A stretch of DNA of 51,244 nucleotides from Candidatus Margulisiibacteriota bacterium (GTDB lineage: Bacteria > Margulisbacteria > WOR-1 > CAVSGV01 > JBHPDX01), in assembly GCA_042577445.1 (NCBI GenBank), contig JBHPDX010000003.1:1-51244 (forward strand), in the 5' to 3' direction. The notes beneath the pieces are model-generated. The model did not search any database, was not told where the DNA came from, and saw nothing but the letters and a program-made list of their open reading frames with translations. Positions 13,009 through 42,583 of the stretch are shown piece after piece. Numbering within the stretch: position 1 is the stretch's first letter; each line of letters begins with the position of its first letter. A program made the translations under genes and the position numbers.

Positions 13009-13047
13009 AAGCTGGCTTTCCTTTACTGGGAAGCCAGCTTATTTTTT
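13009..13047. terminator. Bidirectional intrinsic terminator between rpoD and the convergent orphan
   Basis: AAGCTGGCTTTCC-TTTACT-GGGAAGCCAGCTT with flanking A and T runs. Confidence 0.75.
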
Positions 13048-14172
13048 ATCTCGGGGGGGGTAATACTGATGTATCTTGATCCTCCAATATTTCCACACCC
13101 ACTCTCTCACACCCCTAAACGTCATAATATCTATATCGCGTATCCTCTTCAAAACTCTTCTGATCTTATTGATATCCTTTATCTTCAAGGATTCGAACGC
13201 CTTTTGGTTATTCCTTTTGTAAAATGAGATCATAATGTCGGACAATTCTTTATAATTGGCTTTATCCGCTACTTCGGCCAATTTCCATGGAGGCAACCCG
13301 TCGATAAGCAATTCGTATCCTGCATTATCAAGCTCCGGAAACATCTCCAAACATCTGCCTGCATTCACGGTAAGCAGGAACTTTGCAATAGAGGCCGGAT
13401 AAGTGCCCCGCGCAGCGCCAAATAATTGAATAGCATCATTCACACTTATCATTCTGAGCAGTTCATAAGTATTGACCATGCTTAATGAGAAGAACAAGTT
13501 AAACCGATTGATAAGTTTCAAGTCTTTAAAGAAATCTCCGCGCTGGTCCATGTTCATGGACTCATAGAAATCGTTGCAGTATCCGTTGTTACCGCTCTTA
13601 AATAAAGCAAGAAAAAGCGCAACATGCCCCCTGCGATCGGAAGTTGTAATTAATACTCTTCGCCCGTCAGCATCCAACGACCTATATAAGGACAAGCGTC
13701 CGCTATGATAAATAGAATGGAACATGTTGTCCCGGCCTGCCTGCGATAACCCAATGAACAAAGCCGCTCTTTCCTTGGTCTTTAATGCCCAAAATACTGC
13801 AAGTCTATCCTTATCGGTCAACCTTCCCCAGGCCCTCTCAAACTCCCACCCTTTTTTTACTGCAATAAAACAGTTAATAGAAGCAATTCTATTATCAGCA
13901 TTAAATAATATTTTCTTGATCCGGAGGGCTATTGGCGCTATTTGTTTACCTGTTAATCCCTTTTCCTCTAAAATGCTAACACTGTTTCTTACAGAAGGGT
14001 TCTCATGATATATGCGTTTAAGCTCTTCAATATCCACTCTTCCCGTAAGAGCGGTGACCACCCTGCGGTCCTTGGCGATATTTGGGCCAAGCACCTCAGC
14101 CACACCTTTATTATGGCCGAAGATCAGCCTGTGCGGAATATTGGCTTTTATTGCTGACATGAAATTACTCAT
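13039..14172 (-). CDS. Orphan protein with ~12-aa helical repeats (MgtE-N-like solenoid)
   Basis: 377-aa ORF with periodic L-x4-R-x2-(L/V/F)-F units (LTDKDRLAVFWA/LKTKERAALFIG/LSQAGRDNMFHS); no signal peptide. Confidence 0.7.
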   Translation of the reverse strand: MSNFMSAIKANIPHRLIFGHNKGVAEVLGPNIAKDRRVVTALTGRVDIEELKRIYHENPSVRNSVSILEEKGLTGKQIAPIALRIKKILFNADNRIASINCFIAVKKGWEFERAWGRLTDKDRLAVFWALKTKERAALFIGLSQAGRDNMFHSIYHSGRLSLYRSLDADGRRVLITTSDRRGHVALFLALFKSGNNGYCNDFYESMNMDQRGDFFKDLKLINRFNLFFSLSMVNTYELLRMISVNDAIQLFGAARGTYPASIAKFLLTVNAGRCLEMFPELDNAGYELLIDGLPPWKLAEVADKANYKELSDIMISFYKRNNQKAFESLKIKDINKIRRVLKRIRDIDIMTFRGVREWVWKYWRIKIHQYYPPRDKK

Positions 14173-14182
14173 AGTTAACTGT

Positions 14183-14210
14183 ATTTCGGCATTTTTGGAT
14201 GATAATTTCA
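14183..14210 (-). promoter_or_regulatory. sigma28/FliA-like promoter motif (copy 1)
   Basis: Minus strand TGAAA-N15-GCCGAAAT, ending 10 nt before ATG 14172. Confidence 0.6.
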
Positions 14211-14233
14211 GTAAATATGAGGCAGAATGAGGG

Positions 14234-15070
14234 TTATTTTCTCAGGTTTCTCTGGGTAAAGATGCTGTCCGGAAGATCCAGGCCGAATTGGACCTCATCT
14301 ATGATCATTTCCGTCAGGGAATCCTTGCGAAGAAGGTTACTCATCGTGAAATAAACAGGGTAATACCTTTTGCCATATAATTTGATATTACTTAGGGTCA
14401 TGAGCTTAAGCTTCTTTCCGGACTTGGCGAAAAGTTCTTCTTTAACCGGCACAAATGTTCCTTTATCGACCCATATCTTTCTTTTATAATATGTGACTTC
14501 TTTTACTTTGGCTACAAGCTCGATCACATAGCAGTCATACTTGGTCTTGACCGTTTTCCTGCCTTCCGGATGGGTCAATGTGATCGTTTCTTCGCCAACC
14601 AGCTTTGCATTATACTTTTTATCAAGTTCAGAGCTTTCCAGGGCATCTTCGTAGCTGAAATCAGAACCCATCATGGACTGGCGCAACATATGGCCTGCAA
14701 TCTTAATGATCTTTTCGACCGAGGGCATGTATATCCACATATTATCGTCGATCTTAAGGTATTTAACTCCTTCATCCCGAGCTGGATATGTGAATTCAGA
14801 ATAAGACTTATCGCGCCCTTTTGAATAAGATATCATCTTTTTTGTCCTTATATCGTCTCTCACATGAATAACCATTCTGCTTTCCATTTTGGCGGAATCA
14901 TACGTCATGTTATCATCGATCTTATCAAGTATCTGCTGGCCCGTCATTGCAAAAGCAAAGTTAAAAAGTAAAAAGTTAAAACCACAGATCAAAAGCAAAA
15001 GACATATGATATATGCGAAGTACGCCTTAGTTTTGACCTTTTCCCTTTGATTTTTGAGTTTCTTGATCAT
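14234..15070 (-). CDS. Outer-membrane lipoprotein-sorting (LolA-like) protein
   Basis: Hydrophobic N-terminal signal, F.YPAR..G.KYL, WIYMPS, SMMGSDFSYED; last gene of the ABC operon. Confidence 0.85.
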   Translation of the reverse strand: MIKKLKNQREKVKTKAYFAYIICLLLLICGFNFLLFNFAFAMTGQQILDKIDDNMTYDSAKMESRMVIHVRDDIRTKKMISYSKGRDKSYSEFTYPARDEGVKYLKIDDNMWIYMPSVEKIIKIAGHMLRQSMMGSDFSYEDALESSELDKKYNAKLVGEETITLTHPEGRKTVKTKYDCYVIELVAKVKEVTYYKRKIWVDKGTFVPVKEELFAKSGKKLKLMTLSNIKLYGKRYYPVYFTMSNLLRKDSLTEMIIDEVQFGLDLPDSIFTQRNLRK

Positions 15071-16302
15071 ATTGTCCTTAATGCATCAGTTGGTTCCATT
15101 TTTGATGCCCTGATCGCCGGCGGGATTGCAGCCACGACCGAAAATAAAATACCCATGCAAAAACCAAAGAAGATTATCCCCCAGCTGAATACGGCACGGT
15201 ATACATAAGATAGTGGCAGATTGATCGTGCCCATCTGCTCGAATGTCGCCGTAAAATCAATACCCTCAACTGCAAGATAATAAGCTACACCTGAGCCCCA
15301 GACCGCGCCGATAAAACTAGCAATGGTCCCGATAAGCAGGGCTTCGAACAGGACCACTCCCATAACCTGACGGTCCTTCATGCCCAATGCTTTCATCATG
15401 CCGATCTCTTTGGTCCGCTCCAGTACCGCCATGTACATTGTGTTCAATATAGTAAAGCTGGCAAGAAAAAGGACCAAGAAATATATGCCGCCATAAACAT
15501 TTTTTGCGATCGTCATATAGAAATACAAGATGCCTTCATCCAGCCAGGCCCTGGCTATATATTGATCCGGATAAGCCTGCTCCAACCCTGTTTGGATCTC
15601 TTTAGCCACTCTCGAGGCCATACTCTTATTCTTAACAAAAACAAATATCTCGGTCACCCTGCCATCCAGATCAAGCAGCTGCTGCGCCTTATCCAAGGGC
15701 ATATAAAAAGTCGTCTTGTCAACGCTCTGAACTCCATAGCTATAGATCCCGACTATTTTCAGGTTCATGGCAGTGATCGAACCATACGCGGTCTGGGTCA
15801 CAACTGTCAGTGTGTCGCCAAGTTTAAGCCCCAGATCCCGGGCCATCTGGACGCCGATATTCATCTCTTCACGTCCCGCTTTTATCATCCTTCCTTCAAC
15901 GATCTTCTGATCAAGGTGGGAGATCTTGCTTTCGCTCTCTGGAACTATACCAACACCGAACACCGGTTTATTATTCCCTTTGTATTCCAGCAGAACGCCG
16001 AATTTTATCCTGCCCACGGTCAGCGTTACGTTCGGATCCTTTGCAGCCACTTTCTCTACATCTTTATAATCCGCAATATTGGCCTCCAGGGGCAGCATTC
16101 TTTCGCGCTTAACATACTCTTTATTGAGAATGCGGACATGACCGTAGTTCAAACGGATCACGTTATCGAACATATCATCCATGACCCCTGTTATAAGGGA
16201 CCAGAGATAGACCGCTATCATTACCGCGACAGCTATCGACAGCCCGGTCAAAACTGAACGGCGCTTATTGCGAAAAATATTCCTTAAAGCGATCTTGAAC
16301 AT
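15067..16302 (-). CDS. LolC/E-FtsX family ABC permease
   Basis: ALRNIFRNKRRS, periplasmic domain, ILNTMYMAVLERTKEIGMMKALG, PTDALR. Confidence 0.92.
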   Translation of the reverse strand: MFKIALRNIFRNKRRSVLTGLSIAVAVMIAVYLWSLITGVMDDMFDNVIRLNYGHVRILNKEYVKRERMLPLEANIADYKDVEKVAAKDPNVTLTVGRIKFGVLLEYKGNNKPVFGVGIVPESESKISHLDQKIVEGRMIKAGREEMNIGVQMARDLGLKLGDTLTVVTQTAYGSITAMNLKIVGIYSYGVQSVDKTTFYMPLDKAQQLLDLDGRVTEIFVFVKNKSMASRVAKEIQTGLEQAYPDQYIARAWLDEGILYFYMTIAKNVYGGIYFLVLFLASFTILNTMYMAVLERTKEIGMMKALGMKDRQVMGVVLFEALLIGTIASFIGAVWGSGVAYYLAVEGIDFTATFEQMGTINLPLSYVYRAVFSWGIIFFGFCMGILFSVVAAIPPAIRASKMEPTDALRTI

Positions 16303-17529
16303 TTATGCTTTCCTCAGTGCCTCGGTCGGCTCCATTTTTGCGGCCACTCGGGCCGGATATATACTGGTCAGGGCGGATATCACGATACCGGCGATAAAAG
16401 CGGTCACGATCATGCCCGGATTCCAGACACCGCGCATTACACCTGTAACTCTGTAACCGATATCGCCTATATCTCTCATCAAATAACCCCAGTTGATCCC
16501 ATATTTAACATAAAATATATTTAATATTATACCGATCAAACAACCTGTGATGCTCCCCAGGACACCGATCATAGCCCCTTCCATCACAAAAAGCTTGATG
16601 ATCTGTCTGCGCCTCATGCCCATTGCCGCCATCATGCCGATCTCCCGCGTCCGCTCGAACGCCGCCAAAAGGATAGTGTTGCTGATGCCGATCAAAGCAA
16701 TAACGAAAATGCTGAACAATATAAATGAAGTCCCTCCGCGTTTTGCCTGGGCAATGGCGATCACGTCCGCTGCAAGGTCCTTCCAGGTGGCAACTTCAAG
16801 ACCGGGAACCTCACCCGCCAGCCTGTCACGGAATGCCTGGACCATGGCAGGATCTTTAAGTTTAATATCTATTTCGGTTACACCCTTACCCATATCCAAT
16901 GACTCCTGCCCAAGTCCTAGCGGTATTACAACTGCGGCCCAATCGATCTTGGGATCTTCGGTCCTGAGTATGCCTTTAATGCGCAGGTCGATAGCCTGAT
17001 ATGTATCATATTTGGTCCGTGTAAGTATGGTCATATAATCCCCCACATCCACCCCAAAATCATCTGCCAGTCCTTCTCCCAGGAGCATGGCCTCTTCATT
17101 GCCTTTTAAGAACTCGCCTTTATGCAGGGCTTGTTGTAAAAGAAAAACAGACTGGTCATCATTTGGATTGACCGCTATCCCCACGGCCGCATATTGGTCA
17201 ATACCATCCGAGAGCATGACGCGGAAATTAATTCGTGAAGTTACGCCGGCAACATCCGGATCCATTGCGACTTTCTTAATGATGGAAGCCGGATCATCGA
17301 TCGATTTGTCCAGAGGGAGATTCTCTTCGTCTTCGCGATAGTCCCGGTCAAATATCTTGATATGGCCTGTCTCGTAATTAATGATCCTATCAAATGAATC
17401 CTGGTCAATGCCGGTAAGCATCGAGTCCACTATAATGAGCAACGCCAGTCCCAGGGCGATCGCCAGGAATGTCAGGAAAGTCCTGGTAAAATGCCTGAAT
17501 ATATTCCTAAATGCCAGCCGAATATACAA
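16303..17529 (-). CDS. LolC/E-FtsX family ABC permease
   Basis: AFRNIFRH..RT, NTILLAAFERTREIGMMAAMG, EPTEALR. Confidence 0.92.
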   Translation of the reverse strand: MYIRLAFRNIFRHFTRTFLTFLAIALGLALLIIVDSMLTGIDQDSFDRIINYETGHIKIFDRDYREDEENLPLDKSIDDPASIIKKVAMDPDVAGVTSRINFRVMLSDGIDQYAAVGIAVNPNDDQSVFLLQQALHKGEFLKGNEEAMLLGEGLADDFGVDVGDYMTILTRTKYDTYQAIDLRIKGILRTEDPKIDWAAVVIPLGLGQESLDMGKGVTEIDIKLKDPAMVQAFRDRLAGEVPGLEVATWKDLAADVIAIAQAKRGGTSFILFSIFVIALIGISNTILLAAFERTREIGMMAAMGMRRRQIIKLFVMEGAMIGVLGSITGCLIGIILNIFYVKYGINWGYLMRDIGDIGYRVTGVMRGVWNPGMIVTAFIAGIVISALTSIYPARVAAKMEPTEALRKA

Positions 17530-17532
17530 TTA

Positions 17533-18219
17533 TTAATCCCTCTCGTCTGATTGTATTTGACCGTCATGTACCTTGACCAAACGACGAGCATAATCCATGA
17601 CCATCGGATCATGGGTTGAGAAAATAAATGTGGTCTTGGTCTTCTTGTTTATCTTCTCCATCAATTTAAGGATATCTTCGCCTGTTTTTGAGTCAAGATT
17701 TGCTGTTGGCTCGTCGGCAAGAACGACTTTTGGACCTTTAACAAGAGCCCTGGCTATTGCGACCCTTTGCTGCTGGCCTCCGCTTATCTCGCCAGGCTTT
17801 CTACCTGCAAGATCATCTATAGCGACATCTTTAAGCGCTTTCATGACAAGCTCTTTTCTTTCTTTTTGATCATGCTTCTTAAGAAGGATCAGGGGAAATT
17901 CAACGTTCTCGAATGCAGTGAAAACCGGGATAAGATTAAAGGTCTGGAAAACAAAGCCAAGATTAAAATTTCTGACATCGGCAAGCTGATTTGGGGACAT
18001 TTTGGAGATATCTGAGTCGCCGACAAATACTCTCCCTGATGTTGGCCTATCCAGACAGCCGAAGAGGTTAAGCATTGTGGTTTTCCCTGAACCGGAAGGG
18101 CCTGCTATTGAGAGGAAATCCCCTTCTTCAACTGAAAGCGTTACACCTCGTAGAGCCGGAACCTCGATCTTTCCAACTTTGTAGATTTTGGTAGCTTTTT
18201 CCATGCGGACAATAGGCAT
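17533..18219 (-). CDS. LolD-like ABC ATP-binding protein
   Basis: GPSGSGKT, ISGGQQQRVAIARAL, LADEPTANLD, STHD. Confidence 0.95.
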   Translation of the reverse strand: MPIVRMEKATKIYKVGKIEVPALRGVTLSVEEGDFLSIAGPSGSGKTTMLNLFGCLDRPTSGRVFVGDSDISKMSPNQLADVRNFNLGFVFQTFNLIPVFTAFENVEFPLILLKKHDQKERKELVMKALKDVAIDDLAGRKPGEISGGQQQRVAIARALVKGPKVVLADEPTANLDSKTGEDILKLMEKINKKTKTTFIFSTHDPMVMDYARRLVKVHDGQIQSDERD

Positions 18220-18254
18220 TATTTATTCCCCCTTTAATCGGTTCACACAGAAGA

Positions 18255-18330
18255 TGGTAGCCCCAACGGGATTCGAACCCGTGCTGCCGGCTTGAAAAGC
18301 CGGTGTCCTAGGCCTCTAGACGATGGGGCC
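18255..18330 (-). tRNA. tRNA-Glu(TTC)
   Basis: GGCCCCATCGTCTAGAGGCCTAGGAC..CCGGC-TTTTCAA-GCCGG..TTCGAAT..ACCA. Confidence 0.96.
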
Positions 18331-18410
18331 ATATCGCATTCAGATTATCAAAATACTGGGTTATTTTCAATAAAAACTTGCCAGCCGTAGTCCTGGTTAT
18401 GGACAAAGGC

Positions 18411-18487
18411 TGGTCGGAGCGGCGGGATTCGAACCCACGGCCTCCTGCTCCCGAAGCAGGCGCTCTACCAAGCTGAGCCACGCTCCG
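18411..18487 (-). tRNA. tRNA-Pro(CGG)
   Basis: CGGAGCG..CCTGC-TTCGGGA-GCAGG..TTCGAAT..CGCTCCGACCA. Confidence 0.96.
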
Positions 18488-18507
18488 CTCTGCACTCCAA
18501 ATAAAAA

Positions 18508-18579
18508 TGGGCCCAGTAGGATTCGAACCTACAACCAATCGGTTATGAGCCGATTGCTCTACCATTGAGCTATGGGCCC
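18508..18579 (-). tRNA. tRNA with CAT anticodon, probably tRNA-Ile2 (lysidine type)
   Basis: GGGCCCATAGCTCAATGGTAGAGC..ATCGG-CTCATAA-CCGAT; paired 1:72 and no GGG/CCC anticodon stem, so not the initiator; Ile2 versus elongator Met is an inference. Confidence 0.85.
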
Positions 18580-18583
18580 TCGC

Positions 18584-18751
18584 TTATTTGTCCTCAGGCC
18601 ACTGTTCCATATCCGGACCGAATTTCTTCTTCTTTTCAAGCAGTTTTGACCGGAACTTACTCACGCTTTCGGAAAGATTGGAAAGCGTACCTGTAAATTC
18701 CTCAACTTTTTTGAGCAAAGTATCAACATCGTTCAGGTTTTCTTCTCCCAT
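18584..18751 (-). CDS. 55-aa small helical hypothetical protein (below the ORF track cutoff)
   Basis: MGEENLNDVDTLLKKVEEFTGTLSNLSESVSKFRSKLLEKKKKFGPDMEQWPEDK; SD-like GGCGGTGA upstream. Confidence 0.7.
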   Translation of the reverse strand: MGEENLNDVDTLLKKVEEFTGTLSNLSESVSKFRSKLLEKKKKFGPDMEQWPEDK

Positions 18752-18877
18752 ATACAATCACCGCCTAAATATGACAGGGCTTGATTATAGCAAAAATACT
18801 TTTTAAATCCAACTTCGAGTTATCCGCTTGAAGAATGGCGATTTTATAGGTAAAATCAGGGAGTTTTTCACTGCAAT

Positions 18878-18952
18878 GGGCGGTTATTTCAGCGGTAGAA
18901 GGCTTCCCTTACAAGGAAGAGGTCACTGGTTCGAATCCAGTACCGCCCACCA
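18878..18952 (+). tRNA. tRNA-Val(TAC)
   Basis: GGGCGGT..CTTCC-CTTACAA-GGAAG..TTCGAAT..ACCGCCCACCA. Confidence 0.95.
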
Positions 18953-18964
18953 TATACCCATCAA

Positions 18965-19171
18965 CTAAGGCCTGTTCTTGAACAATTGGATCCCAAGTTT
19001 AATGCCTATGATCACAAGAACAATTGATATAACTATTATATAGTCTTTTACAAAGTTTGGAAAATAAGCTCCAATTATCACGCCTATAAGAAGGGCTCCT
19101 GTTTTTAAGAATTGCGCGTCCATAAAGTTCATATGCTTTAAATTATTCTCAAGCCATTTGATCAGGTACAT
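18965..19171 (-). CDS. Small two-TM membrane protein
   Basis: 68 aa, two hydrophobic helices, SD GGAGGTG, directly downstream of the Na/Pi gene. Confidence 0.75.
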   Translation of the reverse strand: MYLIKWLENNLKHMNFMDAQFLKTGALLIGVIIGAYFPNFVKDYIIVISIVLVIIGIKLGIQLFKNRP

Positions 19172-19186
19172 ATTTCCACCTCCGAG

Positions 19187-21065: not shown

Positions 21066-21140
21066 GGGCGCCTAGTTCAGTGGTAGAATGCTTCCCTCAC
21101 ACGGAAGAGGTCGTTGGTTCGATCCCAACGGCGCCCACCA
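21066..21140 (+). tRNA. tRNA-Val(CAC)
   Basis: GGGCGCC..CTTCC-CTCACAC-GGAAG..TTCGAT..GGCGCCCACCA. Confidence 0.96.
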
Positions 21141-21211: not shown

Positions 21212-21214
21212 AGC

Positions 21215-27357: not shown

Positions 27358-27385
27358 TGAAATTAAAGCAAAAATATGACGATTA
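27358..27385 (+). promoter_or_regulatory. sigma28/FliA-like promoter motif (copy 2)
   Basis: TGAAA-N15-GACGATTA. Confidence 0.55.
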
Positions 27386-27404: not shown

Positions 27405-28259
27405 ATGGGTTTTCAGGGTGTTAGTCAGCTTCAAACTTTATTTTTAACCGCCAGACAGACTGGTGCGCATTTTTCTTTTGGGAATAACGCCCTTCCACGC
27501 TTTAATGACTTTACAAAAGTACAGTCCCTTACTTTTTTAAAAAGTACTCCGCTGGCCTCATCGATTTTTGAAAAAGCATCAATAACCCTAAGTAAGATCC
27601 AGCAGAAAAACCTGGGAGGGCCGTTCCCCGCCTCCTTCAACCTGGATATGGAAAAATTGACCCTGGTATCTTTAGATAAGCAGGAAATACCGCGCGAAAG
27701 GATAAATACTTTTATAAATGATATGGACCACGATAGAGCGGTAAGGTTTCTAAGAAAATTGGGCGCCTTGCAAAAGAATTATAAAAACCCAATAATAAAC
27801 TTTTTAGGCAAGCGCTTCATGAGCTGGATGCCAAGCGATATAGGCAGATTCATGGATAAATATTTCGAGGAGCTTATCTGCAACACAAGAAGGGGCGAAG
27901 TGTCCATACTGTTCAACAGGATAGATATAAAGGGGTCTGCAAGTCTGACAGAAGCGGTTAAAAAACATAAACTGGAAACGGACGGGCGTATATTACACTT
28001 ATTCATGGTGGCATTAGAAGCGGTTGCAGATGTGGCCCCCTATGATCTTGGGGTATCTTACAAGCTTAATCTCGCAAGGCTTACGCCTTTATGGCTGACA
28101 AAGCAGAATATAAATATCGATGAAGTCGACGAAACTATTGAAAGTTCAGATCACGACAGAATGATCAAATTCCTGGAAAAGATCAGGGCGCTGCGAATCA
28201 AATCAATAAGAGAACCTGTCAAAAGAAAGAAACAAATGGAACTCTTCTCGAAAGACTAA
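27405..28259 (+). CDS. Orphan protein with an internal ~47-aa duplication
   Basis: 284-aa ORF, SD AGGGGG; SFNLDMEKLT..DHDRAVRFLRKLGAL versus SYKLNLARLT..DHDRMIKFLEKIRAL. Confidence 0.75.
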   Translation: MGFQGVSQLQTLFLTARQTGAHFSFGNNALPRFNDFTKVQSLTFLKSTPLASSIFEKASITLSKIQQKNLGGPFPASFNLDMEKLTLVSLDKQEIPRERINTFINDMDHDRAVRFLRKLGALQKNYKNPIINFLGKRFMSWMPSDIGRFMDKYFEELICNTRRGEVSILFNRIDIKGSASLTEAVKKHKLETDGRILHLFMVALEAVADVAPYDLGVSYKLNLARLTPLWLTKQNINIDEVDETIESSDHDRMIKFLEKIRALRIKSIREPVKRKKQMELFSKD

Positions 28260-33722: not shown

Positions 33723-34817
33723 CTATATTAGAAGATGTTTATTCCCGACATATACATGCCTCAAGCCGGCTTTCTTGGCTGCCTTTAAGGCAGTCTCGGC
33801 AAGCCTCTTGGACGTAGGCGGAACATCATACATATAGAATTGCGGATAAAAGGCAAGTAAACAATACGGGATATTGGGGTCTATTTTAGCTATGAACTTT
33901 GCGATATGGGATATCTCCTGAACATCTATATATCCCGGGACCAGAAGAGTTGAAGCGACAAGAAGCGGCGGCTGCCTGCGGCTCTTCCCCATTTTGGCCA
34001 CAGCTTTAAAATTGTTGAATGTCCACTTATTCGATACACCAGTCAGCGCATAATGCAGGTGATCATCGTAAGCCTTCAGATCTATCTTGACCGTCCCGCC
34101 GGACATAAGGGCCATTTCCGCGAACTCCTTCATTATATCCTCGTTCATCGCACCGTTGGTCTCAAAGCATACGCGGAAGATCTGCCCTTTTTTCTTCTCA
34201 CGCATTATCTTTGCCGCTTTCAGCGCGTGATATATCTGCGGCGTCGGATCTCCCCCGAAAAAGCACACGCAGGGAGTCCTTTCATCGACCTGAGAAGCAA
34301 GCTCCTCCGGCGTTACCACATGCGGCTGGGTCAGATAATCCCTAAAATGCCAGTTCTGGCAGAAGAGGCAGTCGAACGAACAGGCTCCGTAAAAGACCGC
34401 CAGGCTCTTGAAGCCGGTCTCGGGACCGCTCTTATTCGCGTATTTTGGATAACCGGCGCCGGTACATCCCGCACATACGCCGTCCGCCACGCAGTTCGTA
34501 GGCAGCTTTTCAAAGTAATAATTAAGTGTAGCTCCGCCAAAGTCGACGAGCTTTCCGCCCTCATTTTTCCTTACGCCGCAGTATCCCCTCTTCCCTCTGC
34601 CGATCCTGCATTGATTTATACAGATATCGCACGGGATGCCGGCTTTATCCTTGGGGGGTTTTGCCGGAAGATGATGCTCCAGCCGGCAGCGTTCATGCGT
34701 CGCTTCAATGATCTTCCTTGCTTTATGGAATTTAGTCCTTATGCAGTCCAGGCAAACGCCCAGTTCTTTTGATATTATCTCTTTTTTTTCTCCGCAGACC
34801 TTACAGTTGCTATCCAT
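33723..34817 (-). CDS. Radical SAM enzyme (AmmeMemoRadiSam / PFL-activase-like)
   Basis: CSFDCLFCQN (CxxxCxxC), CDICINQC..GYCGVR, FGGDP, ETNG, IDLKA. Confidence 0.88.
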   Translation of the reverse strand: MDSNCKVCGEKKEIISKELGVCLDCIRTKFHKARKIIEATHERCRLEHHLPAKPPKDKAGIPCDICINQCRIGRGKRGYCGVRKNEGGKLVDFGGATLNYYFEKLPTNCVADGVCAGCTGAGYPKYANKSGPETGFKSLAVFYGACSFDCLFCQNWHFRDYLTQPHVVTPEELASQVDERTPCVCFFGGDPTPQIYHALKAAKIMREKKKGQIFRVCFETNGAMNEDIMKEFAEMALMSGGTVKIDLKAYDDHLHYALTGVSNKWTFNNFKAVAKMGKSRRQPPLLVASTLLVPGYIDVQEISHIAKFIAKIDPNIPYCLLAFYPQFYMYDVPPTSKRLAETALKAAKKAGLRHVYVGNKHLLI

Positions 34818-34844
34818 ATAGAGCGAATATTATCACCTAAAAAG

Positions 34845-34872
34845 TGAAATTTCATTAAGTTTCTGCCGATAA
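34845..34872 (+). promoter_or_regulatory. sigma28/FliA-like promoter motif (copy 3, perfect -10)
   Basis: TGAAA-N15-GCCGATAA. Confidence 0.7.
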
Positions 34873-34911
34873 ACAAGGGTCTGATGATTTTTTTAAAAGG
34901 AGAAAATAATA

Positions 34912-35520
34912 ATGATAAGACCTGCAGGATTACTGGCATCAAAAATAACCGTAAGCAAAATATGCGGTACGATAAGCAGCAAGGTCCCCGGGCCTGTAAA
35001 GGAGTTCCAGGAAGCATATCCGAATCTTGTAGTGCTTGCTTCACAAAAGAGATTGGACAGCCTGAAAAATTCTCATTTCTTAGGTATGCAGGGAACAAAG
35101 CTTCGAAAATATCTAGCTGCTGTGGTCAAGAAGCATGAATGGAGTAATGGAGACGGCGTCTATGAAAAAATGACAAAAGACGGCCTGACATTCGGCCAAT
35201 TCTACATGGCTACAGCGGTCGAAGGGAAACAGGAGCTTGTGACCTTTTTTGCTGAAAGGCATTTAATAGAAACGCTGGAAGCTGAATTCCGAAGGAACAA
35301 ACGCCCGATCATGATCAATGTTATATACCAGGGAAAGCAAAGAATGGTCATATTCAAAAGGTTCAAGACCTCTTATCACGACTGGAGAGAAACATATGAA
35401 GAACAAGCGCTGGCTGCAAAGCCCACTTCTACAAGATGGAAAAGCGAAGCCCCTGGCAGGCGCCATCCTTTTGTTCACCCTGGCATGCAAATAAAGGGTA
35501 CCTCTGTTAAAAAGGGTTAG
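34912..35520 (+). CDS. Orphan protein, paralog A
   Basis: 202 aa, SD AAGGAG; aligns by eye with 35810..36460. Confidence 0.8.
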   Translation: MIRPAGLLASKITVSKICGTISSKVPGPVKEFQEAYPNLVVLASQKRLDSLKNSHFLGMQGTKLRKYLAAVVKKHEWSNGDGVYEKMTKDGLTFGQFYMATAVEGKQELVTFFAERHLIETLEAEFRRNKRPIMINVIYQGKQRMVIFKRFKTSYHDWRETYEEQALAAKPTSTRWKSEAPGRRHPFVHPGMQIKGTSVKKG

Positions 35521-35526
35521 TTCCCG

Positions 35527-35718
35527 TTATTTATGCAGGTTAATGAAATTCCCGATCGAGCGGTCATAAGTTCTTTCAGCTTCCTTGGAAAAATAACAGG
35601 CGGGAAGCTCGTCCCTTTGAAGATGGTACTCGATACAATCGCAGCATTTGTGTTTTCTTGAGCAGGGCTCGTAGGTACAGTTGCACCTCTTTTTGTTGAT
35701 ATTTTGCTGGCATTCCAT
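35527..35718 (-). CDS. Small Cys-rich protein (DUF6485-like)
   Basis: [37 protein letters not shown]. Confidence 0.8.
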
Positions 35719-35742
35719 ACATATAAATATATCACAAAAAAG

Positions 35743-35770
35743 TGAAATTTCACCTGACTTTTGGCGATAA
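35743..35770 (+). promoter_or_regulatory. sigma28/FliA-like promoter motif (copy 4)
   Basis: TGAAA-N15-GGCGATAA. Confidence 0.65.
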
Positions 35771-35809
35771 ATAAACTGAAGTTTGATAATTTTTTAAGGA
35801 GGAATTTTT

Positions 35810-36460
35810 ATGACAGGTGGAGCAGGAATCGGTAAGGTCCCAGGAAGACATATTGGACATAAAAAAATGGCCAGGCAAATCAAGACCGGTCAAATAACAC
35901 AAGGAGGTCCTTTTACCACTAACGGGATGTCGGACGTTAGGTCTTTTCTAAAAGCGCATTCTGATTTTACGGTATTCATGTCGCAAAGGAAACTAGAAGG
36001 CCTCTGCACAAAAGTAGTAGATATCGAAGGACAAAAATCCAGCTTGATATCCTTATATCTTGATGCGGTAGCTGGTTACGATTGGGATAACCAGCAAAAT
36101 CCTATCTATATTGCAATGCACAGGCATAAGCTTCATTTTGGTTTTATGCACGTTGTTATAAGTGCAAAAAGAGGACCTGAAAGAGTCACCTTTCTTGCGG
36201 AAGACCGCCTAATAAACCAATTAAAGCCCGGGCAAGACATTAGGGTCATGAAGGACGGGATAATGAAAAATGCCTCCTTTGTTGAGATCGAGAAGACCGG
36301 ACATGATTGGTGGATCGTTCACCGCGAGACCGTCCAAATGGGCCAAAGCCGTATTTCAATAGAGGTACAAAGACAGCAAGAAGAATTAGACAGAAGAGCA
36401 GCTAGAAGAGAAGAAGAGGAAGAGATTTTCCAGATTAGTATTAAAAAAACAGAAGGTTAA
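35810..36460 (+). CDS. Orphan protein, paralog B
   Basis: 216 aa, SD AAGGAGG; shares SQ.(K/R)L, YL.AV, W.N, L.FG, VTF.AE..LI and HDW with paralog A. Confidence 0.8.
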   Translation: MTGGAGIGKVPGRHIGHKKMARQIKTGQITQGGPFTTNGMSDVRSFLKAHSDFTVFMSQRKLEGLCTKVVDIEGQKSSLISLYLDAVAGYDWDNQQNPIYIAMHRHKLHFGFMHVVISAKRGPERVTFLAEDRLINQLKPGQDIRVMKDGIMKNASFVEIEKTGHDWWIVHRETVQMGQSRISIEVQRQQEELDRRAARREEEEEIFQISIKKTEG

Positions 36461-37062
36461 TCTCTCTTAATAACGCTTGCTTCCAGATATGCTGAGAGTG
36501 CCAGTACCGGCACGCAGACAATAAGATAAGCTTCCAGCTTCAAGAGCAGCAAATTCACTATATATATGTAACGGTAATTTGATGCTACGGATATAGCTAA
36601 TGATATCCCCATCCCCAGCGCAAGAGAAAAAGCAAGGACTTCGAGCACCAGCACAAGCGTGGAAAAAAGCATGATCTTGAAGGCCCTGCCCCCTGACACT
36701 TTTGCGGGAGGCTGAAAATTCTCACTTGTTCGAACCTGAGGAACAAAAACGCTGATACCGATATTCATCCCCGTCAAAAAAGCTATGATGAACGGCAGCA
36801 CCACAAATACCCCCGAAGACATATAAACAGCTATGGATATTGAATTGAACAGGAAGATGAAAAGGAATATCCTGATAAAGCCTGATCCGGGATTCACGAA
36901 TTTTGTTATCGTCTTTATGAACCACGAAGGAAATACCTTAAGGAACTTAATATTAAAATATTCGACCAGGAATGAAGAACAAAAACCTATAAAAAAGAGA
37001 AGCAGCGCGAACCAGCCGAAATAGAAGTTATCCTTAATGATATTGAGGGCATCCATATACAT
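36457..37062 (-). CDS. Polytopic membrane protein, SpoIIM/DUF95-like
   Basis: About 5 TM helices; FIFLFNS, G.N.G, LEVLAF, LSAYLEA pattern. Confidence 0.65.
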   Translation of the reverse strand: MYMDALNIIKDNFYFGWFALLLFFIGFCSSFLVEYFNIKFLKVFPSWFIKTITKFVNPGSGFIRIFLFIFLFNSISIAVYMSSGVFVVLPFIIAFLTGMNIGISVFVPQVRTSENFQPPAKVSGGRAFKIMLFSTLVLVLEVLAFSLALGMGISLAISVASNYRYIYIVNLLLLKLEAYLIVCVPVLALSAYLEASVIKRD

Positions 37063-37063
37063 A

Positions 37064-38170
<1,107 letters not shown>

Positions 38171-38192
38171 TTATACAGGATTAACTCTTATT

Positions 38193-38306
38193 TTTCAGCA
38201 TCAATTAATTTTTGGCGTTATATCAACCAATATTCAGCTTTTCCTCATAAAATAGCGTGCAAGTTTATGCCCTCCTAACACGAAAGATATATATAAGGGG
38301 GGGGAC
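38193..38306 (+). repeat. Diverged duplicated upstream region, copy A (includes motif copy 5, GCAAG-N15-CACGAAAG, 38259-38286)
   Basis: Shares TTTCAGCAT, TTTTTGGCGTTATAT, AATATTC, TGCAAGTT, GCCCTC, CACGA and TATATATAAGGGGG with 41896-42006. Confidence 0.8.
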
Positions 38307-38308
38307 AT

Positions 38309-40525
38309 TTGGTGATAAGTGGTTTTAGAAAATTAGTTGTATTTTTACTGACTGCGGTCATATTCATATTGATCACCAGCAGCAGCTCCCTTGCTATTTA
38401 CACTGTATCTATCCCTTCACCGGCTGCAGGACAAGTACTATATGCCGGAGCAACCGCAACATTTAGGGTCAATCATAATATGCCTGTTCCTGTTTGGACC
38501 GGAAATCCGGAAACACTAAATGTCACTGTTCAAATATCTGATAACAATTTTGCTACGGCTACTAACTTGCGCGCTTATGCACACTCACAGTTTGCAGGTA
38601 TAGAGCAGGGGGCCTACACTTATAATGGTACTGATTACACGTTCACTGTGCCGGTATATAACAGCACTAACGTTAAAATTCGAATATATATAGATGGCAG
38701 AATAGTAACTGTTTATAATCCAACAACAATTCCCCCACAGATCCAATTTTCTGCTTTCACAGAGGTTTATTATAGCGGTATTTTTACGGTTTCTACACAA
38801 GGCCCGGGACAACCGAGTGCGCCTCAATATTCCGCATCAGGGCCAGACTTAACTTGGGTGCCGGCGCCCTACTCAGCAGCTTATATATCATATTATAAGA
38901 TCTATAGAAATAATGTTCATATCGATAACTCAAGCTCCCCGTCATATTCAGATACCAATGTGCCGGAAGGAACTTACATATACAAAGTATCGGCAGTTTA
39001 TACCTCGGGCATCGAAAGCAATCAATCATTAGGCACTCAGGTAATAGTTGACGGGTCAGTTCCTACAGCTCCAAGCCTTTTACCTATTAATGTCTCCGGG
39101 CCAACTCTTAACTGGATCGCGGTAACCGATACCTGCGGGATCGATCACTACAATGTTTACAGAAATGCGGATCCAGCTATAGAAGTAGATCATCCAAATA
39201 CAAGCTACATTGATGCTAATGCCCCGGAAGGAGATAATGTCTATCAGATAACTGCAGTTGATAATTTAGGACGTGAGAGCGGCCTTTCGGAACAAAGAAA
39301 TGTGATTGTTGACCATACACCGCCTACAGTAAACGATTTCAGTGTCGATGGCGGCAATACAGTAACCGACATTAATATAACCTTAAATATTGATATACCT
39401 GAACCCGCATCAGAACTAGCAAATAACATTTATATAAAAGAAGGGGCCGGCGATTGGGTAGCTTATCCAAATAGCACAACTTCAGTGCCATGGATCCTTA
39501 CTAAGAGAGACTATGCTGCGGAACAAGCGGCGGTTGAGTACGCAACTATGAACGTAACTGTTGCGGAGTATAATTATCAAAATGCTTTAACGGCATACGA
39601 TGTTAAAGATTTTATGCGGAATCCTATTTTTGGCACAGATACCGGACCGTTTTCGGCACACGAGATAATGGATCAGAGTATCATAGATCAGTTCTCCCCT
39701 GATGACCAAGGTGTGATAAATAGCCGTTATCAAAGCTGTATGTCAACATACCAAGCTCATCAGGTTGCGCTGTCAGCACTGGCTGCGGCTACAGCCGTGC
39801 TTAATGCCCCAGATACAGAAAGACAGTTGGAAATAAAAGTTGAAGATACTGCGGGCAACATTACATATAAAAGCTTAACCGTGGAGCTTGCTCTCACACC
39901 GACTTTCTCTGATATAGCTGTCAACGGCACCAGCATATCCGCATTATCATTCAGCACCCAGAAATCAGAAATAACAGCAGTGGTCAGGAACGTTTATGAG
40001 ATCACCTCAGAGAACGTAAAGCTTAACATTGACGGCCAGGAAATTGATGTGAACAGCGGCCTCGTTATTACGCCGATAGCAGGAGAAGATGGCGCATACG
40101 ACTTATATTACCAAACCCCGGAGCCGTTAAGTGCCAGCTCACATACGATCGTATTCACAGCAACTGACGTTTATGGCAACGAAGGAACATCGACTGTCAG
40201 CTTAAGCATGGCAGGTGTTCTGGGTGTTACAGGCAAGCCGAAGATCGTTCCTAATCCTTTCGCGCCTAGAACTCAAACTGTGGACATTCAATATACCCTT
40301 TCAGGCAACATGGACATAACACTTATGGTCTATGACGTAACCGGAAGGTCTGTATGGAGAAAATCCTGCCCTACCGGAACGAACGGCGGACAGGCAGGTG
40401 CCAATAATGTGGTCTGGGACGGCAGGGATTCTGCTAACCACTTTGTTGGGAACGGAGCTTACGTTTACTTTATCACAGCAAAAGGAAAGGTACTGTCCAG
40501 AGGAAATCTGGCAGTGCTTGATTAA
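38309..40525 (+). CDS. Secreted Ig/Fn3 multidomain surface protein with a C-terminal T9SS-type-A/FlgD-Ig-like sorting domain
   Basis: Sec signal peptide; two Fn3 repeats (LTW..YKIYRN..Y.D..PEG.Y.Y.VSAV; LNW..YNVYRN..Y.D..PEG...Y.ITAVD); C-terminal PNPF..QYTL..VYDVTGR..WDGRD..NGAYVY..GNLAVLD. Confidence 0.85.
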   Translation: MVISGFRKLVVFLLTAVIFILITSSSSLAIYTVSIPSPAAGQVLYAGATATFRVNHNMPVPVWTGNPETLNVTVQISDNNFATATNLRAYAHSQFAGIEQGAYTYNGTDYTFTVPVYNSTNVKIRIYIDGRIVTVYNPTTIPPQIQFSAFTEVYYSGIFTVSTQGPGQPSAPQYSASGPDLTWVPAPYSAAYISYYKIYRNNVHIDNSSSPSYSDTNVPEGTYIYKVSAVYTSGIESNQSLGTQVIVDGSVPTAPSLLPINVSGPTLNWIAVTDTCGIDHYNVYRNADPAIEVDHPNTSYIDANAPEGDNVYQITAVDNLGRESGLSEQRNVIVDHTPPTVNDFSVDGGNTVTDINITLNIDIPEPASELANNIYIKEGAGDWVAYPNSTTSVPWILTKRDYAAEQAAVEYATMNVTVAEYNYQNALTAYDVKDFMRNPIFGTDTGPFSAHEIMDQSIIDQFSPDDQGVINSRYQSCMSTYQAHQVALSALAAATAVLNAPDTERQLEIKVEDTAGNITYKSLTVELALTPTFSDIAVNGTSISALSFSTQKSEITAVVRNVYEITSENVKLNIDGQEIDVNSGLVITPIAGEDGAYDLYYQTPEPLSASSHTIVFTATDVYGNEGTSTVSLSMAGVLGVTGKPKIVPNPFAPRTQTVDIQYTLSGNMDITLMVYDVTGRSVWRKSCPTGTNGGQAGANNVVWDGRDSANHFVGNGAYVYFITAKGKVLSRGNLAVLD

Positions 40526-40537
40526 TAGGGAGCGCAA

Positions 40538-41863
40538 GTGAGAAATAGTTGGTTTAAAAACTTAATAATCGCGATAGCAGCAGTAAGCATACTGGCGCTG
40601 CCGGCCGTTGCCGAGATCAAATCCACTGTCGATATCACAAGAGTGGGTAAAGGCGCAAGGCCTATAGCGCTTGGCGGAGCATACACAGCTATTGCCGATG
40701 ACGCTTTCGCGATATTCACCAACCCTGCCGGACTTGGACTTCAGGACAAGATAAGCCTTACCAGCATGAACACTCAGATCCTTGGCAGCGTTGATTATAA
40801 AGTTCTCGGCGGAGTATACCCTACTGATTTTGGAACTATAGCGGTTGGCTACGTCAACGCCGCATCACCTGCCGGCAACCGTACTGACGGAGCAGGGGTA
40901 GAATCAGGAGCAATGTACTATTCCAACACTGTTGCCCTCTTTTCATATGGAACTAAACTTTCCGATGCTCTTGCGGTCGGCGCAAGCGTCAAGATCTTCT
41001 CACAGGGATTTTCAGGCGACATTGCAGGATCCCCACAGGCAACCGGAAGCGATATGGACTTTGGATTTATATATAAATTCTCCGACGATATCACTATCGG
41101 TTCAGTTTTCCAGAACTTCATTAAATCATCTGACGGCGAAATGAGCTGGTCAACAGGACAAAAAGAAGAGATCGTCGGAACTAAAAAACTTGGCGTTGCC
41201 TATCAGTTGAACGAAGACGTTAAAACAACAGTTGACCTTGAAATGTTCAACGGCAGCGCTCCTTTAGTGATCCACGGCGGCGCTGAATGGAAGGTCCTGG
41301 ATTACCTGACCGTTAGAGGCGGAATTGACCAGAACTTTGAATCAACTAGCGAGAACGGCAAGAGCGTCACGACCGACCTTTCCGCCGGCTTAGGTATTTC
41401 CTTAAATGAATTCGTATTTGATTATGCTTACTGCAGCGACCATGCTATAGCAGAGAATGCGACCCACTACTTCTCTATTTCATATTACTTCCCGGTACCT
41501 GAAAAGGAAGAAGATGAAGAAACTGTTGCTGATATTGAAGGCGCTAAGATGGCGGCAGCACTTAATAAAGAACTGGAAAATGCCAACGTTTCAGAAAAAG
41601 ATGATACCCAAGTTGCTGAAGAATTGAGTGTAGAACTGGAAAATGCTAATGTTATAGAGGAAGACGACACTAAAGTAGCGGAAGAATTGAACAACGAATT
41701 AGAGACAGCGAAAATATCAAAAGATATCAAAGAATCAAACATTGAAGTAAAAACTGACAATTCATATTCAAAATCTATCAACAAGCAGCTGGAAGATGCG
41801 GATATCTCTTATAACCTTTCAACAGAAGACGATGAGTTCTACAGCAACCTCTTCAACGAATAA
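40538..41863 (+). CDS. PorV/UPF0164-like outer-membrane beta-barrel with an acidic C-terminal tail
   Basis: Signal peptide; GARPIALGGAYTAIADDAFAIFTNPAGL signature; alternating beta-strands; FDYAY..THYFSISY. Confidence 0.85.
   Translation: MRNSWFKNLIIAIAAVSILALPAVAEIKSTVDITRVGKGARPIALGGAYTAIADDAFAIFTNPAGLGLQDKISLTSMNTQILGSVDYKVLGGVYPTDFGTIAVGYVNAASPAGNRTDGAGVESGAMYYSNTVALFSYGTKLSDALAVGASVKIFSQGFSGDIAGSPQATGSDMDFGFIYKFSDDITIGSVFQNFIKSSDGEMSWSTGQKEEIVGTKKLGVAYQLNEDVKTTVDLEMFNGSAPLVIHGGAEWKVLDYLTVRGGIDQNFESTSENGKSVTTDLSAGLGISLNEFVFDYAYCSDHAIAENATHYFSISYYFPVPEKEEDEETVADIEGAKMAAALNKELENANVSEKDDTQVAEELSVELENANVIEEDDTKVAEELNNELETAKISKDIKESNIEVKTDNSYSKSINKQLEDADISYNLSTEDDEFYSNLFNE
41561..41716 (+). 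repeat. 63-bp (21-aa) tandem repeat, ~2.5 copies, in the PorV-like tail
   Basis: LNKELENANVSEKDDTQVAEE / LSVELENANVIEEDDTKVAEE / LNNELETAKI; units start at 41561, 41624 and 41687. Confidence 0.85.
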
Positions 41864-41895
41864 GCTCTAATATCAAAAAATTAGCGTTATGCTCC

Positions 41896-42006
41896 TTTCA
41901 GCATGCTCTATTTTTGGCGTTATATAAGCTAATATTCGGCCTCCCTACACAAAAAAGCATGCAAGTTAGCCCTCTCCCAGCACGATAGGTATATATAAGG
42001 GGGAAC
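41896..42006 (+). repeat. Diverged duplicated upstream region, copy B (includes motif copy 6, GCAAG-N15-CACGATAG, 41961-41988)
   Basis: Colinear similarity to 38193-38306. Confidence 0.8.
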
Positions 42007-42007
42007 G

Positions 42008-42583
42008 ATGGACTATTTTCGCAATAAATCAGATCTTTCAAAATTACTGCTATTAACCGCAGTAATTCTTTTTATATTGACCTCCTTTGCATACGGACAG
42101 GCATTTGAGTCAAATAGTGGAGCTTATATTGGCTATGACCTGCACCCGGAATTTGACAACATCATCACTGTTTCATACGGCACAAAACTAACCAGCATAT
42201 TGCCTATCAGAGCCTCTGTTTTAGATGATGTCCTCGTCGGTAAAAGCGCAAGGCTTTTCACAAAAGATAAGGATTTCCAGGCAATATACGCTACTTATGA
42301 CGGTCTTAAAGAGAATGACTTTAATGTTTTTGCTGCAGACGGGAACTTACTTTCAAAGAACATAAGAACATCATTTGGCATCAACATATTGGATGGCGCT
42401 TCCCTATTAAGCATGAAAGCAGGGGTCGGCGTAGACATAGGAAGAGTAACGTTTAATTATGCCTATCATAACAGTATTTCTGCCCCCGATAATTCAACCC
42501 AGTACTTCTGTATTTCATATTCAATTGACAGCCCGGCAGAGGAATCTAAACTTATAGCAAGCGCCCCGATCTATCCATATTAA
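42008..42583 (+). CDS. Short PorV-like paralog with internal deletions (mini-barrel or decaying copy)
   Basis: Signal LLTAVILFILTS resembles that of 38309; SYGTKL..LVGKSARLFT and GVGVDIGRVTFNYAY..NSTQYFCISY match segments of 40538. Confidence 0.65.
   Translation: MDYFRNKSDLSKLLLLTAVILFILTSFAYGQAFESNSGAYIGYDLHPEFDNIITVSYGTKLTSILPIRASVLDDVLVGKSARLFTKDKDFQAIYATYDGLKENDFNVFAADGNLLSKNIRTSFGINILDGASLLSMKAGVGVDIGRVTFNYAYHNSISAPDNSTQYFCISYSIDSPAEESKLIASAPIYPY

Follow-up and report, generated by a model that had tools for sequence, protein, structure and literature searches.

A probable two-tier, flagellar-style transcription cascade run by FliA-family sigma factors in Margulisbacteria, with a late regulon possibly destined for type III export

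The window considered here is the whole of contig C3 (51,244 nt) from a 1.22-Mb assembly (G000; 71 contigs, 68.8% complete, approximately 45% G+C) of a bacterium of the WOR-1 lineage of Margulisbacteria. Consistent with this, homologues of one of its proteins at 62-65% identity bear the NCBI names Candidatus Margulisbacteria, Margulisiibacteriota or candidate division WOR-1. Most of its genes are ordinary and encode pyruvate phosphate dikinase, DnaG, an RpoD-type sigma factor, LolA-like and MacB/FtsX proteins, a Na/Pi transporter, FtsK and tRNA-guanine transglycosylase. Several genes and operons of the window are preceded by bipartite candidate promoters with a CGATA core in the -10 box and invariant spacing. 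These elements fall into two classes, A and B, that differ in the -35 word; their genomic distribution, their relation to a flagellar-type apparatus and the sigma factors that may recognize them are described below. The comparison set comprised 98 genomes of the phylum, 52 of them from the same class (relatives are labelled G001, G003, G005, G011, G012, G015, G020 and so on). Open reading frames (ORFs) were called with a rough greedy caller and not a trained gene finder; start-codon errors are possible.

Class B sites have the form TGAAATTT-N12-CGATA[AT]. The initial annotation had listed six copies of one motif in the window, and all six strings are indeed present. Four of them belong to class B: 14183..14210 on the minus strand (TGAAATTATCATCCAAAAATGCCGAAAT) and, on the plus strand, 27358..27385 (TGAAATTAAAGCAAAAATATGACGATTA, then TATAGGGGG), 34845..34872 (TGAAATTTCATTAAGTTTCTGCCGATAA) and 35743..35770 (TGAAATTTCACCTGACTTTTGGCGATAA). 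The remaining two, at 38259 and 41961, represent the separate class A. A fifth class B site, TGAAATTATTAAGTATTTAGGTCGATAT at 11878..11905 (+), had been overlooked. The scores of the class B position weight matrix (PWM) are 27.2 for the minus-strand site, 27.4, 33.7 and 40.3 for the three plus-strand sites in the order given, and 30.7 for the overlooked one; the site at 35743 is the second-best of the genome. The pattern TGAAA-N15-NNCGAWWW has five matches in the window against 0.54 expected, and five were reached in none of 100 shuffles.

The overlooked site lies 28 nt upstream of rpoD (11934..12986, +), which directly follows the DnaG gene (10073-11875) and encodes the housekeeping sigma factor (350 aa) with Pfam regions 1.2, 2, 3 and 4 (NCBIfam RpoD_Cterm, 385 bits; cut-off 354). 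Because of this site, the earlier statement that the motif was not seen before housekeeping genes is wrong for rpoD. A class B site upstream of rpoD was also found in G001, G012 and G020, and was not found in G015 or G011.

The site at 14183..14210 (-) precedes a gene for a 377-aa protein (13039..14172, -; 351 aa if the start is at 14094) with a weak MgtE_N-like domain (Pfam, 30.9 bits, E 4.3e-7); the product has no NCBIfam match, PDB matches only at E >= 0.3, and no usable match in the ESM Atlas. The site at 27358 is followed by an orphan gene of 284 aa (27405..28259, +) with no Pfam family. Its homologues were detected in only two of 40 relatives, G003 and G005, as tandem paralogues with 24-33% identity, and in G003 both of them have the class B pattern upstream. 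The sites at 34845 and 35743 precede two further orphan genes without a Pfam family, 34912..35520 (+, 202 aa) and 35810..36460 (+, 216 aa). The initial annotation had regarded these two units as duplicates, and their products are distant paralogues (23% identity, E 0.008; 27% and E 1.9e-7 in a second search). For the product of 35810..36460 this neighbour was the only homologue at E <= 1e-3 in a search that covered 40 relatives, and no usable Atlas match was obtained. A putative gene, a 78-aa ORF of no known family, lies on the opposite strand between the two paralogues (35517-35753, -).

The class A promoters of the window are GCAAGTTTATGCCCTCCTAACACGAAAG (38259..38286, +) and GCAAGTTAGCCCTCTCCCAGCACGATAG (41961..41988, +). 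They had been described as weaker matches, and this is so for the class B PWM, which scores them at -9.0 and -14.0. Their scores with an iterated class A PWM, partly drifted into class B, are 33.4 and 25.4. As the analysis of class A below shows, both fit well into a second promoter class, which has another -35 word. The pattern GCAAG-N15-CACGAWAG occurs twice in the window against 0.00 expected. The first site stands within an upstream element present three times in the genome and precedes a unit (38309..41863, +) encoding a 738-aa and a 441-aa protein. The former has a hydrophobic N-terminus and weak Ig-like matches (FlgD_ig, 25.3 bits with a cut-off of 27, plus weak Big_13 and CHU_C); the latter is of no known family. 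The second site, an exact match to ATGCAAGT-N16-CGATA, precedes a gene for a 191-aa protein with a hydrophobic N-terminal segment and no Pfam family (42008..42583, +). When the sequences preceding 38309 and 42008 are aligned (184 columns), the mean column identity is 80%, in agreement with the earlier view of them as duplicates, and a third copy resides on contig C26. A leader TATA(A)GGGGG noted earlier in three units is present at 27358, 38259 and 41961.

Two other features were observed in the class A upstream regions. About 35-50 nt before the -35 box, three class A promoters carry a second conserved block, ATTTTTGGCGTTATAT(C/A)A (38195-38230, 41897-41932 and C26 at about 17010-17033 on the minus strand). 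The class A spacer contains a C-rich run, CCCTCC, complementary to the downstream G-rich ribosome-binding word. An additional promoter, an operator and a hairpin in the leader are possible explanations.

The class B PWM was seeded on TGAAA-N15-NNCGA[TA]A and iterated, and converged on the consensus aaaaa.TGAAATTT(N12)CGATAAA. At scores of at least 14, 16 and 18 it finds 106, 94 and 87 sites in the genome, and 5, 3 and 0 in a first-order Markov copy of it. Thus the motif stands far above the control in a genome-wide scan. Called ORFs leave only 21.8% of the genome uncovered, yet 74 of the 84 sites with a score of at least 19 and a downstream ORF are located there. The sites are sense-oriented and at promoter distance from genes: a start codon follows within 100 nt in 78 of the 84 (median distance 32 nt), and a ribosome-binding word is present in 70. 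Spacing to the -10 box is invariant, with the core CGATA[AT]A (T at the fourth position 0.85, A at the seventh 0.72), and GC before CGA is weakly kept. The exact pattern TGAAAT-N16-CGATAW has 50 copies in this genome and is present in all 98 genomes of the phylum, with 7-183 copies in each of the 52 genomes of the same class and 1-75 elsewhere; the reversed control has 0-3 on either strand.

In 14 of the 84 class B sites the -10 box is followed after 5-6 nt by TA(N)RRGGG, at start-codon distances as different as 18 and 123 nt. Since the position of this TAGAGGGG-like leader word is fixed to the -10 box and not to the start codon, it is not simply a ribosome-binding site. A leader bound by CsrA was considered and rejected, as CsrA was found in none of five genomes. 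An origin of the motif from a repeat or mobile element was also rejected: the spacers vary between sites, and conservation is confined to the two boxes and the distance between them. TGGGATT, a third -35 variant at an unchanged distance from the CGATA -10 core, was observed before genes at C9:3590, C32:6702 and C42:1012 and, in G001, at 227038, 237741 and 238679. This word may define another sub-class or simply be tolerated as a variant.

For class A, the 7-mers at the -35 position of every CGATA[AT] were tabulated. The three commonest words of this genome are TGAAATT (37), TGAAATC (9) and GCAAGTT (6). A relative from the same order, sampled over 400 kb, has TGAAATT (18) and GCAAGTT (4) as its leading words; TGGGATT was counted three times there. 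Thus the class A element, CATGCAAGTTT-N-CGATA, shares the -10 core and the spacing with class B and has a different -35 word. The loose pattern GCAAG-N15-NNCGA is noisy alone (124 matches against 61, 44 and 44 in controls). A clean class A PWM was rebuilt from 22 GCAAG seed sites; its consensus, CATGCAAGTTT..cC....ta.c.CGATA, is found at 12-16 sites in this genome and at none in the reversed sequence. The exact pattern ATGCAAGT-N16-CGATA occurs in 51 of the 52 genomes of the same class (2-17 copies each) and in three further families (4-14 copies), with no matches to the control in any of the 98 genomes.

The bipartite structure, the fixed spacing and the CGATA core had suggested a promoter of the sigma-28 type. 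The class A and class B elements are with high confidence promoters of alternative sigma factors of the FliA family. Two other interpretations seem highly improbable. According to the first, the motif is a lineage-specific sigma-70 promoter, GTGAAA...GATAAT with an 18-nt spacer, read by RpoD. GTGAAA agrees with TTGACA in four of six positions and GATAAT with TATAAT in five of six, and the motif is very frequent, being present in 63 of the 711 upstream regions (about 9%). However, CGA, the hallmark of sigma-28 promoters, forms the best-kept letters of the -10 box, the final T of TATAAT is mostly A here, and RpoD is conventional. Moreover, the housekeeping promoter can be recognized in the other 648 upstream regions, which lack a class B site. 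TATAAT is 2.59-fold enriched there, the top hexamer apart from ribosome-binding words, and TTGACA-N16-18-TATAAT with at most three mismatches is found in 215 of these regions against 110 in shuffles, an approximately twofold excess. These canonical boxes, also reported in the initial annotation for several other genes, led us to reject a sigma-70 variant.

According to the second interpretation, the conserved words are not sigma contacts and instead constitute an operator of a dimeric transcription factor, as TGAAATTTCA is palindromic. It is perfect in several of the best sites (34845, 35743, C30:6295 and C27:15882), yet the last two letters of the palindrome are weakly conserved. The element is also strictly bipartite, stands at a single distance from CGATA, and is constant in its orientation and position relative to the gene, and the second class differs from it in the -35 word only.

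Neither -35 word is the classical one. The sigma-28 consensus is TAAA-N15-GCCGATAA, and the words TGAAATTT of class B and GCAAGTTT of class A each match the E. coli word TAAAGTTT in six of eight positions. In the flagellin-bearing genome G063, the sequence TAAAGTTT-N12-TCCGATAT was observed about 350 nt upstream of a flagellin gene (locus L022, near 2294, minus strand), which hints that the ordinary flagellum of that organism uses the classical -35 word.

Flagellar-type export genes are present. Contig C16 carries fliN/Y, fliO, fliP, fliQ, fliR, flhB and flhA, followed by a gene for a 126-aa protein and a gene for a short sigma factor, in this order. The core export proteins all score higher with flagellar than with injectisome models (FlhA 768.7 against SctV 674.5; FlhB 391.6 against SctU 324). 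Together with FlgF and FlgG, encoded on contig C20 behind a second FliK-like gene, the set found in this genome is FliN/O/P/Q/R, FlhB, FlhA, FlgF and FlgG. In G001 the operon of the C16 type starts with genes for FliK-like, FlgD-like and 279-aa FlgE/F/G-like proteins, FliM and FliN; that genome also has FlgB/C and FliE/F/H/I/J. FlgI was found in all five near-complete relatives. The apparatus is conserved in 96 of the 98 genomes of the phylum.

A filament protein and a torque domain were not found for this machine. No Flagellin_N match was found in this genome, at 68.8% completeness, and such matches are present in one of the 52 genomes of the same class and in 12 of the 98 of the phylum. The torque domain FliG_C was found neither in this genome nor in five relatives that are 95-100% complete; the FliG of G001 is a FliG-like fragment of 154 aa only. 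Flagellin-bearing families carry two FHIPEP genes. The FlhA encoded beside the short sigma factor (in G059, the FlhA of the same type) is 63-66% identical to that of this genome, whereas the extra copy is 44-45% identical (three genomes). This difference between the FlhA copies sets the conserved system apart from the ordinary flagellum of the few members that have one.

Class A sites are found upstream of the apparatus operons. The FliK-like...FlhA operon is preceded by the G001 site 276086, and the FliK-like-FlgF-FlgG operon by a class A site in both genomes (C20:3679 and G001:81870). The genes behind these promoters encode FliK-like, FlgD-like and short FlgE-like proteins, FliM/N, FliOPQR, FlhBA and FlgF/G. 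Class A sites also precede the genes of a 2071-aa protein with a transglutaminase-like core, an SLH outer-membrane protein and several unknowns. The initial annotation had set the whole regulon apart from flagellar assembly. This is supported for class B, where no classical flagellar family occurs among the top 25 of 65 Pfam families, and fails for class A, which drives flagellar-type assembly genes.

A FliA/WhiG-family sigma factor had been predicted, and two conserved FliA-like sigma factors were found, of 193 aa and 245 aa. In this genome Sigma70_r2 has two matches, RpoD and the 193-aa protein of contig C16 (the short sigma factor), which consists of regions 2 and 4 only. Its best specific NCBIfam family is FliA_WhiG (TIGR02479; 71.2 bits). 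Among its PDB matches, six of seven are named FliA, WhiG (7lq4) or sigma-28, and the seventh is 'RNA polymerase sigma factor'. The alignment skips region 3: the short factor lacks about 55 residues equivalent to FliA 121-193. The short sigma factor is present in 97 of the 98 genomes of the phylum, mostly as a single match, with 55-72% identity for full-length matches within the class. The 245-aa sigma factor, described here from G001, retains region 3 and aligns to positions 3-224 of the 224 of FliA_WhiG (135.1 bits). Its gene sits between FlgI and FlgB, heading the operon flgB-flgC-fliE-fliF-(short fliG)-fliH-fliI-fliJ, and orthologues exist in 49 of the 51 other genomes of the same class.

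The 126-aa gene adjoins the short sigma gene in all 11 loci of relatives, and the C-terminal core of its product is conserved. The protein has no Pfam or NCBIfam match. FlgM, the classical partner of FliA, was rejected as a candidate, since its Pfam family was found in none of five genomes. The predicted complex of the short sigma factor with the 126-aa protein scores 0.80 (three runs, 0.79-0.82), and the best of three controls 0.01; as a rough guide, 58 of 80 solved complexes attained this mark, as did 2 of 110 mismatched pairs. The pLDDT of the partner is at least 67, and at least 54% of the contacts agree between runs. The predicted interface involves sigma residues 97 and 103-119, that is, the conserved stub that replaces region 3. 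The model supports binding of the 126-aa protein to the short sigma factor.

Taken together, these data make it fairly likely that this lineage of Margulisbacteria has a two-tier transcription cascade of the flagellar style, run by alternative sigma factors of the FliA family, with a late regulon that is possibly type III cargo. That the two promoter classes form a hierarchy tied to the apparatus is probable. RpoD would transcribe the early flgB-fliJ operon, which carries the gene of the 245-aa sigma factor. The latter would read class A promoters and thus provide the export gate, the rod and a hook-like part, with read-through into the short-sigma operon. The short sigma factor, whose gene closes the class A flhA operon, would read class B promoters and amplify its own synthesis. 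The 126-aa partner may act as an anti-sigma factor that holds the short sigma factor until a signal releases it, by analogy with export of FlgM. Finally, many class B products could be late substrates of a filament-less type III export machine.

The assignment of the two sigma factors to the two classes is somewhat less certain, and we consider reading of class A by the 245-aa factor and of class B by the short one moderately likely. In the opposite arrangement, the 245-aa sigma factor would read the class B word TGAAATTT, including the promoter of the short sigma factor, and the short sigma factor would read class A. Indeed, the 245-aa factor is closer to FliA/WhiG (135 against 71 bits) and keeps region 3, class B is nearest to the sigma-28 consensus, and no class A or class B site was found within 1.5 kb of the 245-aa sigma gene in the 10 loci checked, so that this factor could stand at the top of a cascade. 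However, the genes of the export gate, rod and hook would then be expressed after about 100 class B genes; to our knowledge, such an order, with the export, rod and hook genes last, is the reverse of every known flagellar hierarchy. Moreover, in 7 of 12 loci a class B site (score of at least 14) stands directly upstream of the operon of the 126-aa protein and the short sigma factor, and operons of a sigma factor and its binding partner are usually read by that sigma factor. The -35 words give no preference, as both match TAAAGTTT equally well. On these grounds the reversed assignment appears unlikely. The phyletic pattern cannot assign the sigma factors, because both of them and both motifs are near-universal in the class.

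Class B promoters, the proposed targets of the short sigma factor, precede rpoD, the operon of the 126-aa protein and the short sigma factor, and roughly 85-105 other genes in the 69%-complete genome. These genes are mostly fast-evolving, lineage-specific and of no known family. There is little paralogy among them, with only four pairs at E < 1e-4 among 79 downstream proteins. In a Pfam search of 73 class B proteins the commonest families were methyltransferases (4), subtilases (2) and nucleotidyltransferases (2), the rest being singletons. In the 400-kb sample of G001, which contains 36 class B sites with a score of at least 14, a tblastn match in this genome was found for 10 of 31 regulon ORFs of at least 100 aa and for 211 of 301 others (Fisher p = 7e-5). 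The median identity of the matches is 32% for the regulon and 52% for other ORFs. Thus the motif is enriched before orphans relative to conserved genes, as the initial annotation had proposed.

The N-termini of class B proteins are unusual. Residues 2-31 of 78 regulon proteins were compared with those of 1045 other called proteins. The fraction of G, S, T, N, P and Q is 0.37 in class B against 0.28 in the others (p = 6e-11), and the acidic fraction is 0.064 against 0.094 (p = 4e-5). Polar, acid-poor N-termini are the direction expected of type III signals, and the observed compositional bias would fit such signals without being specific for them. Hydrophobic, signal-peptide-like N-termini were found in 7 of the 78 class B proteins and in 249 of the 1045 others. 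The earlier suggestion that the regulon encodes exported proteins is not supported, and with so few such N-termini any export of class B products would need another route. Export through the flagellar-type machine is such a route, which we suggest tentatively.

A real alternative-sigma regulon could also serve a life-stage or stress programme unrelated to export, such as surface remodelling, attachment or stationary phase; we regard this as possible, if doubtful. Within this alternative, the products might be cytoplasmic or exported by Sec, and the flagellar-type genes an unrelated relic or a periplasmic structure, a version that we hold with equal reserve. The composition of the regulon agrees with such a programme, as it includes rpoD, a sigma-54 activator, a GGDEF protein, methyltransferases, sugar nucleotidyltransferases, subtilases and SLH/outer-membrane proteins, and seven of the 78 proteins do have classical hydrophobic N-termini. 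WhiG in Streptomyces and sigma-28 in Chlamydia are precedents for control of development by FliA-family sigma factors in the absence of a flagellum. On the other hand, the sigma genes are embedded in flagellar-type operons, class A with the same -10 box drives the apparatus genes, and class B proteins stand out strongly from other proteins in the composition of their N-termini. The apparatus itself is conserved in almost the whole phylum in spite of small genomes, which argues that it has a function.

Several observations weigh against the cascade with its putative cargo. Both FliA-like sigma factors stay below the FliA_WhiG cut-off of 189.6 bits, with scores of 71.2 and 135.1. The 245-aa sigma factor and FliF were not found in this 68.8%-complete assembly, gaps that we attribute to its incompleteness. 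Near-complete relatives have 4-7 Sigma70_r4 matches; those beyond RpoD and the two FliA-like factors include small sigma-like frames as well as some matches that are weak or not to sigma factors, and further small sigma-like proteins could therefore act. The complex was folded with alignments made for this analysis, so the calibration counts given above hold roughly. The absences of flagellin and of the FliG C-terminal domain rest on six-frame Pfam searches, which a very divergent protein could escape. The class B set holds likely cytoplasmic proteins (RpoD, the sigma-54 activator, methyltransferases, nucleotidyltransferases, PdxA and an RRM protein), and the N-terminal bias is confounded, as it could simply reflect orphan status or start-call errors.

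The proposed system resembles the class 3 regulation by FliA/SigD and FlgM in E. coli, Salmonella and B. subtilis in its bipartite promoters with a 15-nt spacer and a CGATAA core, in the location of sigma genes in flagellar operons, in the late promoter on the sigma factor's own operon, in the small sigma-binding partner (here predicted), and in the apparatus genes standing ahead of the late regulon. Unlike the classical system, whose -35 word is TAAA(GTTT), it has GAAATTT or GCAAGTT in this position, and GC before CGA is weakly kept. There are two FliA-like sigma factors and two promoter classes, and the short sigma factor lacks region 3. No FlgM family member was found in the five genomes searched, no flagellin or torque domain was found, and no late genes of the chemotaxis type were seen. 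The late regulon exceeds the classical one several-fold in size, and orphans make up most of it.

Chlamydia also have a FliA-family sigma factor, sigma-28 (RpsD), without a flagellar filament, which controls stage-specific genes, and they possess type III secretion plus leftover flagellar-type genes, as here. However, they have a small regulon and an injectisome, whereas in Margulisbacteria there is a flagellar-type machine and about 100 promoters. In Streptomyces a sigma factor of the FliA/WhiG family is likewise reused in a non-motile organism and held by a dedicated partner (WhiG and RsiG; the partner is predicted in our case), but WhiG has no link to a type III apparatus, and the partner here is of no detectable family. 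The filament-less basal bodies of Buchnera and the injectisome retain the gate, rod and rings without flagellin, as proposed exporters. In contrast to them, the apparatus described here is accompanied by a sigma cascade of its own and by a large set of co-regulated genes, and a separate ordinary FlhA exists in a few flagellin-bearing members. No account of this flagellar/type III/sigma system in Margulisbacteria was found in literature searches that took in PMC9324843, PMC8542988, PMC8382752, 10.1101/568287, PMC6784892 and PMC11607428; supplementary gene tables may bear on it.

The textbook logic of late flagellar genes is kept in all 52 genomes of the class, in bacteria where neither flagellin (with one exception among the 52) nor the torque domain (this genome and five relatives) was found, and this logic is split between two promoter classes and two FliA-like sigma factors. 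Class B sites stand mostly before genes for which relatives could not be detected even in the order itself. A 28-nt promoter motif sorts hundreds of unknown genes of an uncultured phylum into one co-regulated set. If this set is the cargo of a flagellum-derived exporter, it bears on the evolution of type III secretion from flagella and on the lifestyle of Margulisbacteria. In its boldest form, which we advance as a speculation, the machine would be a non-rotating, filament-less, flagellum-derived secretion system of the effector type, with at least 100 fast-evolving late cargo proteins per genome switched on by a short FliA-derived sigma factor that a secretable partner keeps inactive. The flagellum would then have been turned to protein delivery for a second time, independently of the injectisome, in a phylum with small genomes that possibly depends on hosts or partners.

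Two groups of class A genes were observed outside the window. In G001, six class A promoters occur within 16 kb (C1, about 169,900-186,000), with proteins of about 100 aa and proteins of 2620 aa and 997 aa encoded downstream; this looks like a dedicated class A gene island. On contig C21 of the present genome (12434-21075) two adjacent class A genes, the first encoding the 2071-aa protein and the second a protein of at least 743 aa that runs off the contig end, share a common N-terminus, MSEPIINP....

Contig C40 of the same assembly contains identical sequence in inverted orientation at 3991-4018 (-) and 7073-7100 (+) and at 2075 (-) and 9016 (+), which suggests a long inverted repeat or an assembly artefact. 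The window itself contains seven tRNA genes, among them a tight cluster of three, at 18258-18579 (-), 18878-18949 (+), 21066-21137 (+), 4436-4508 (+) and 48749-48824 (-).

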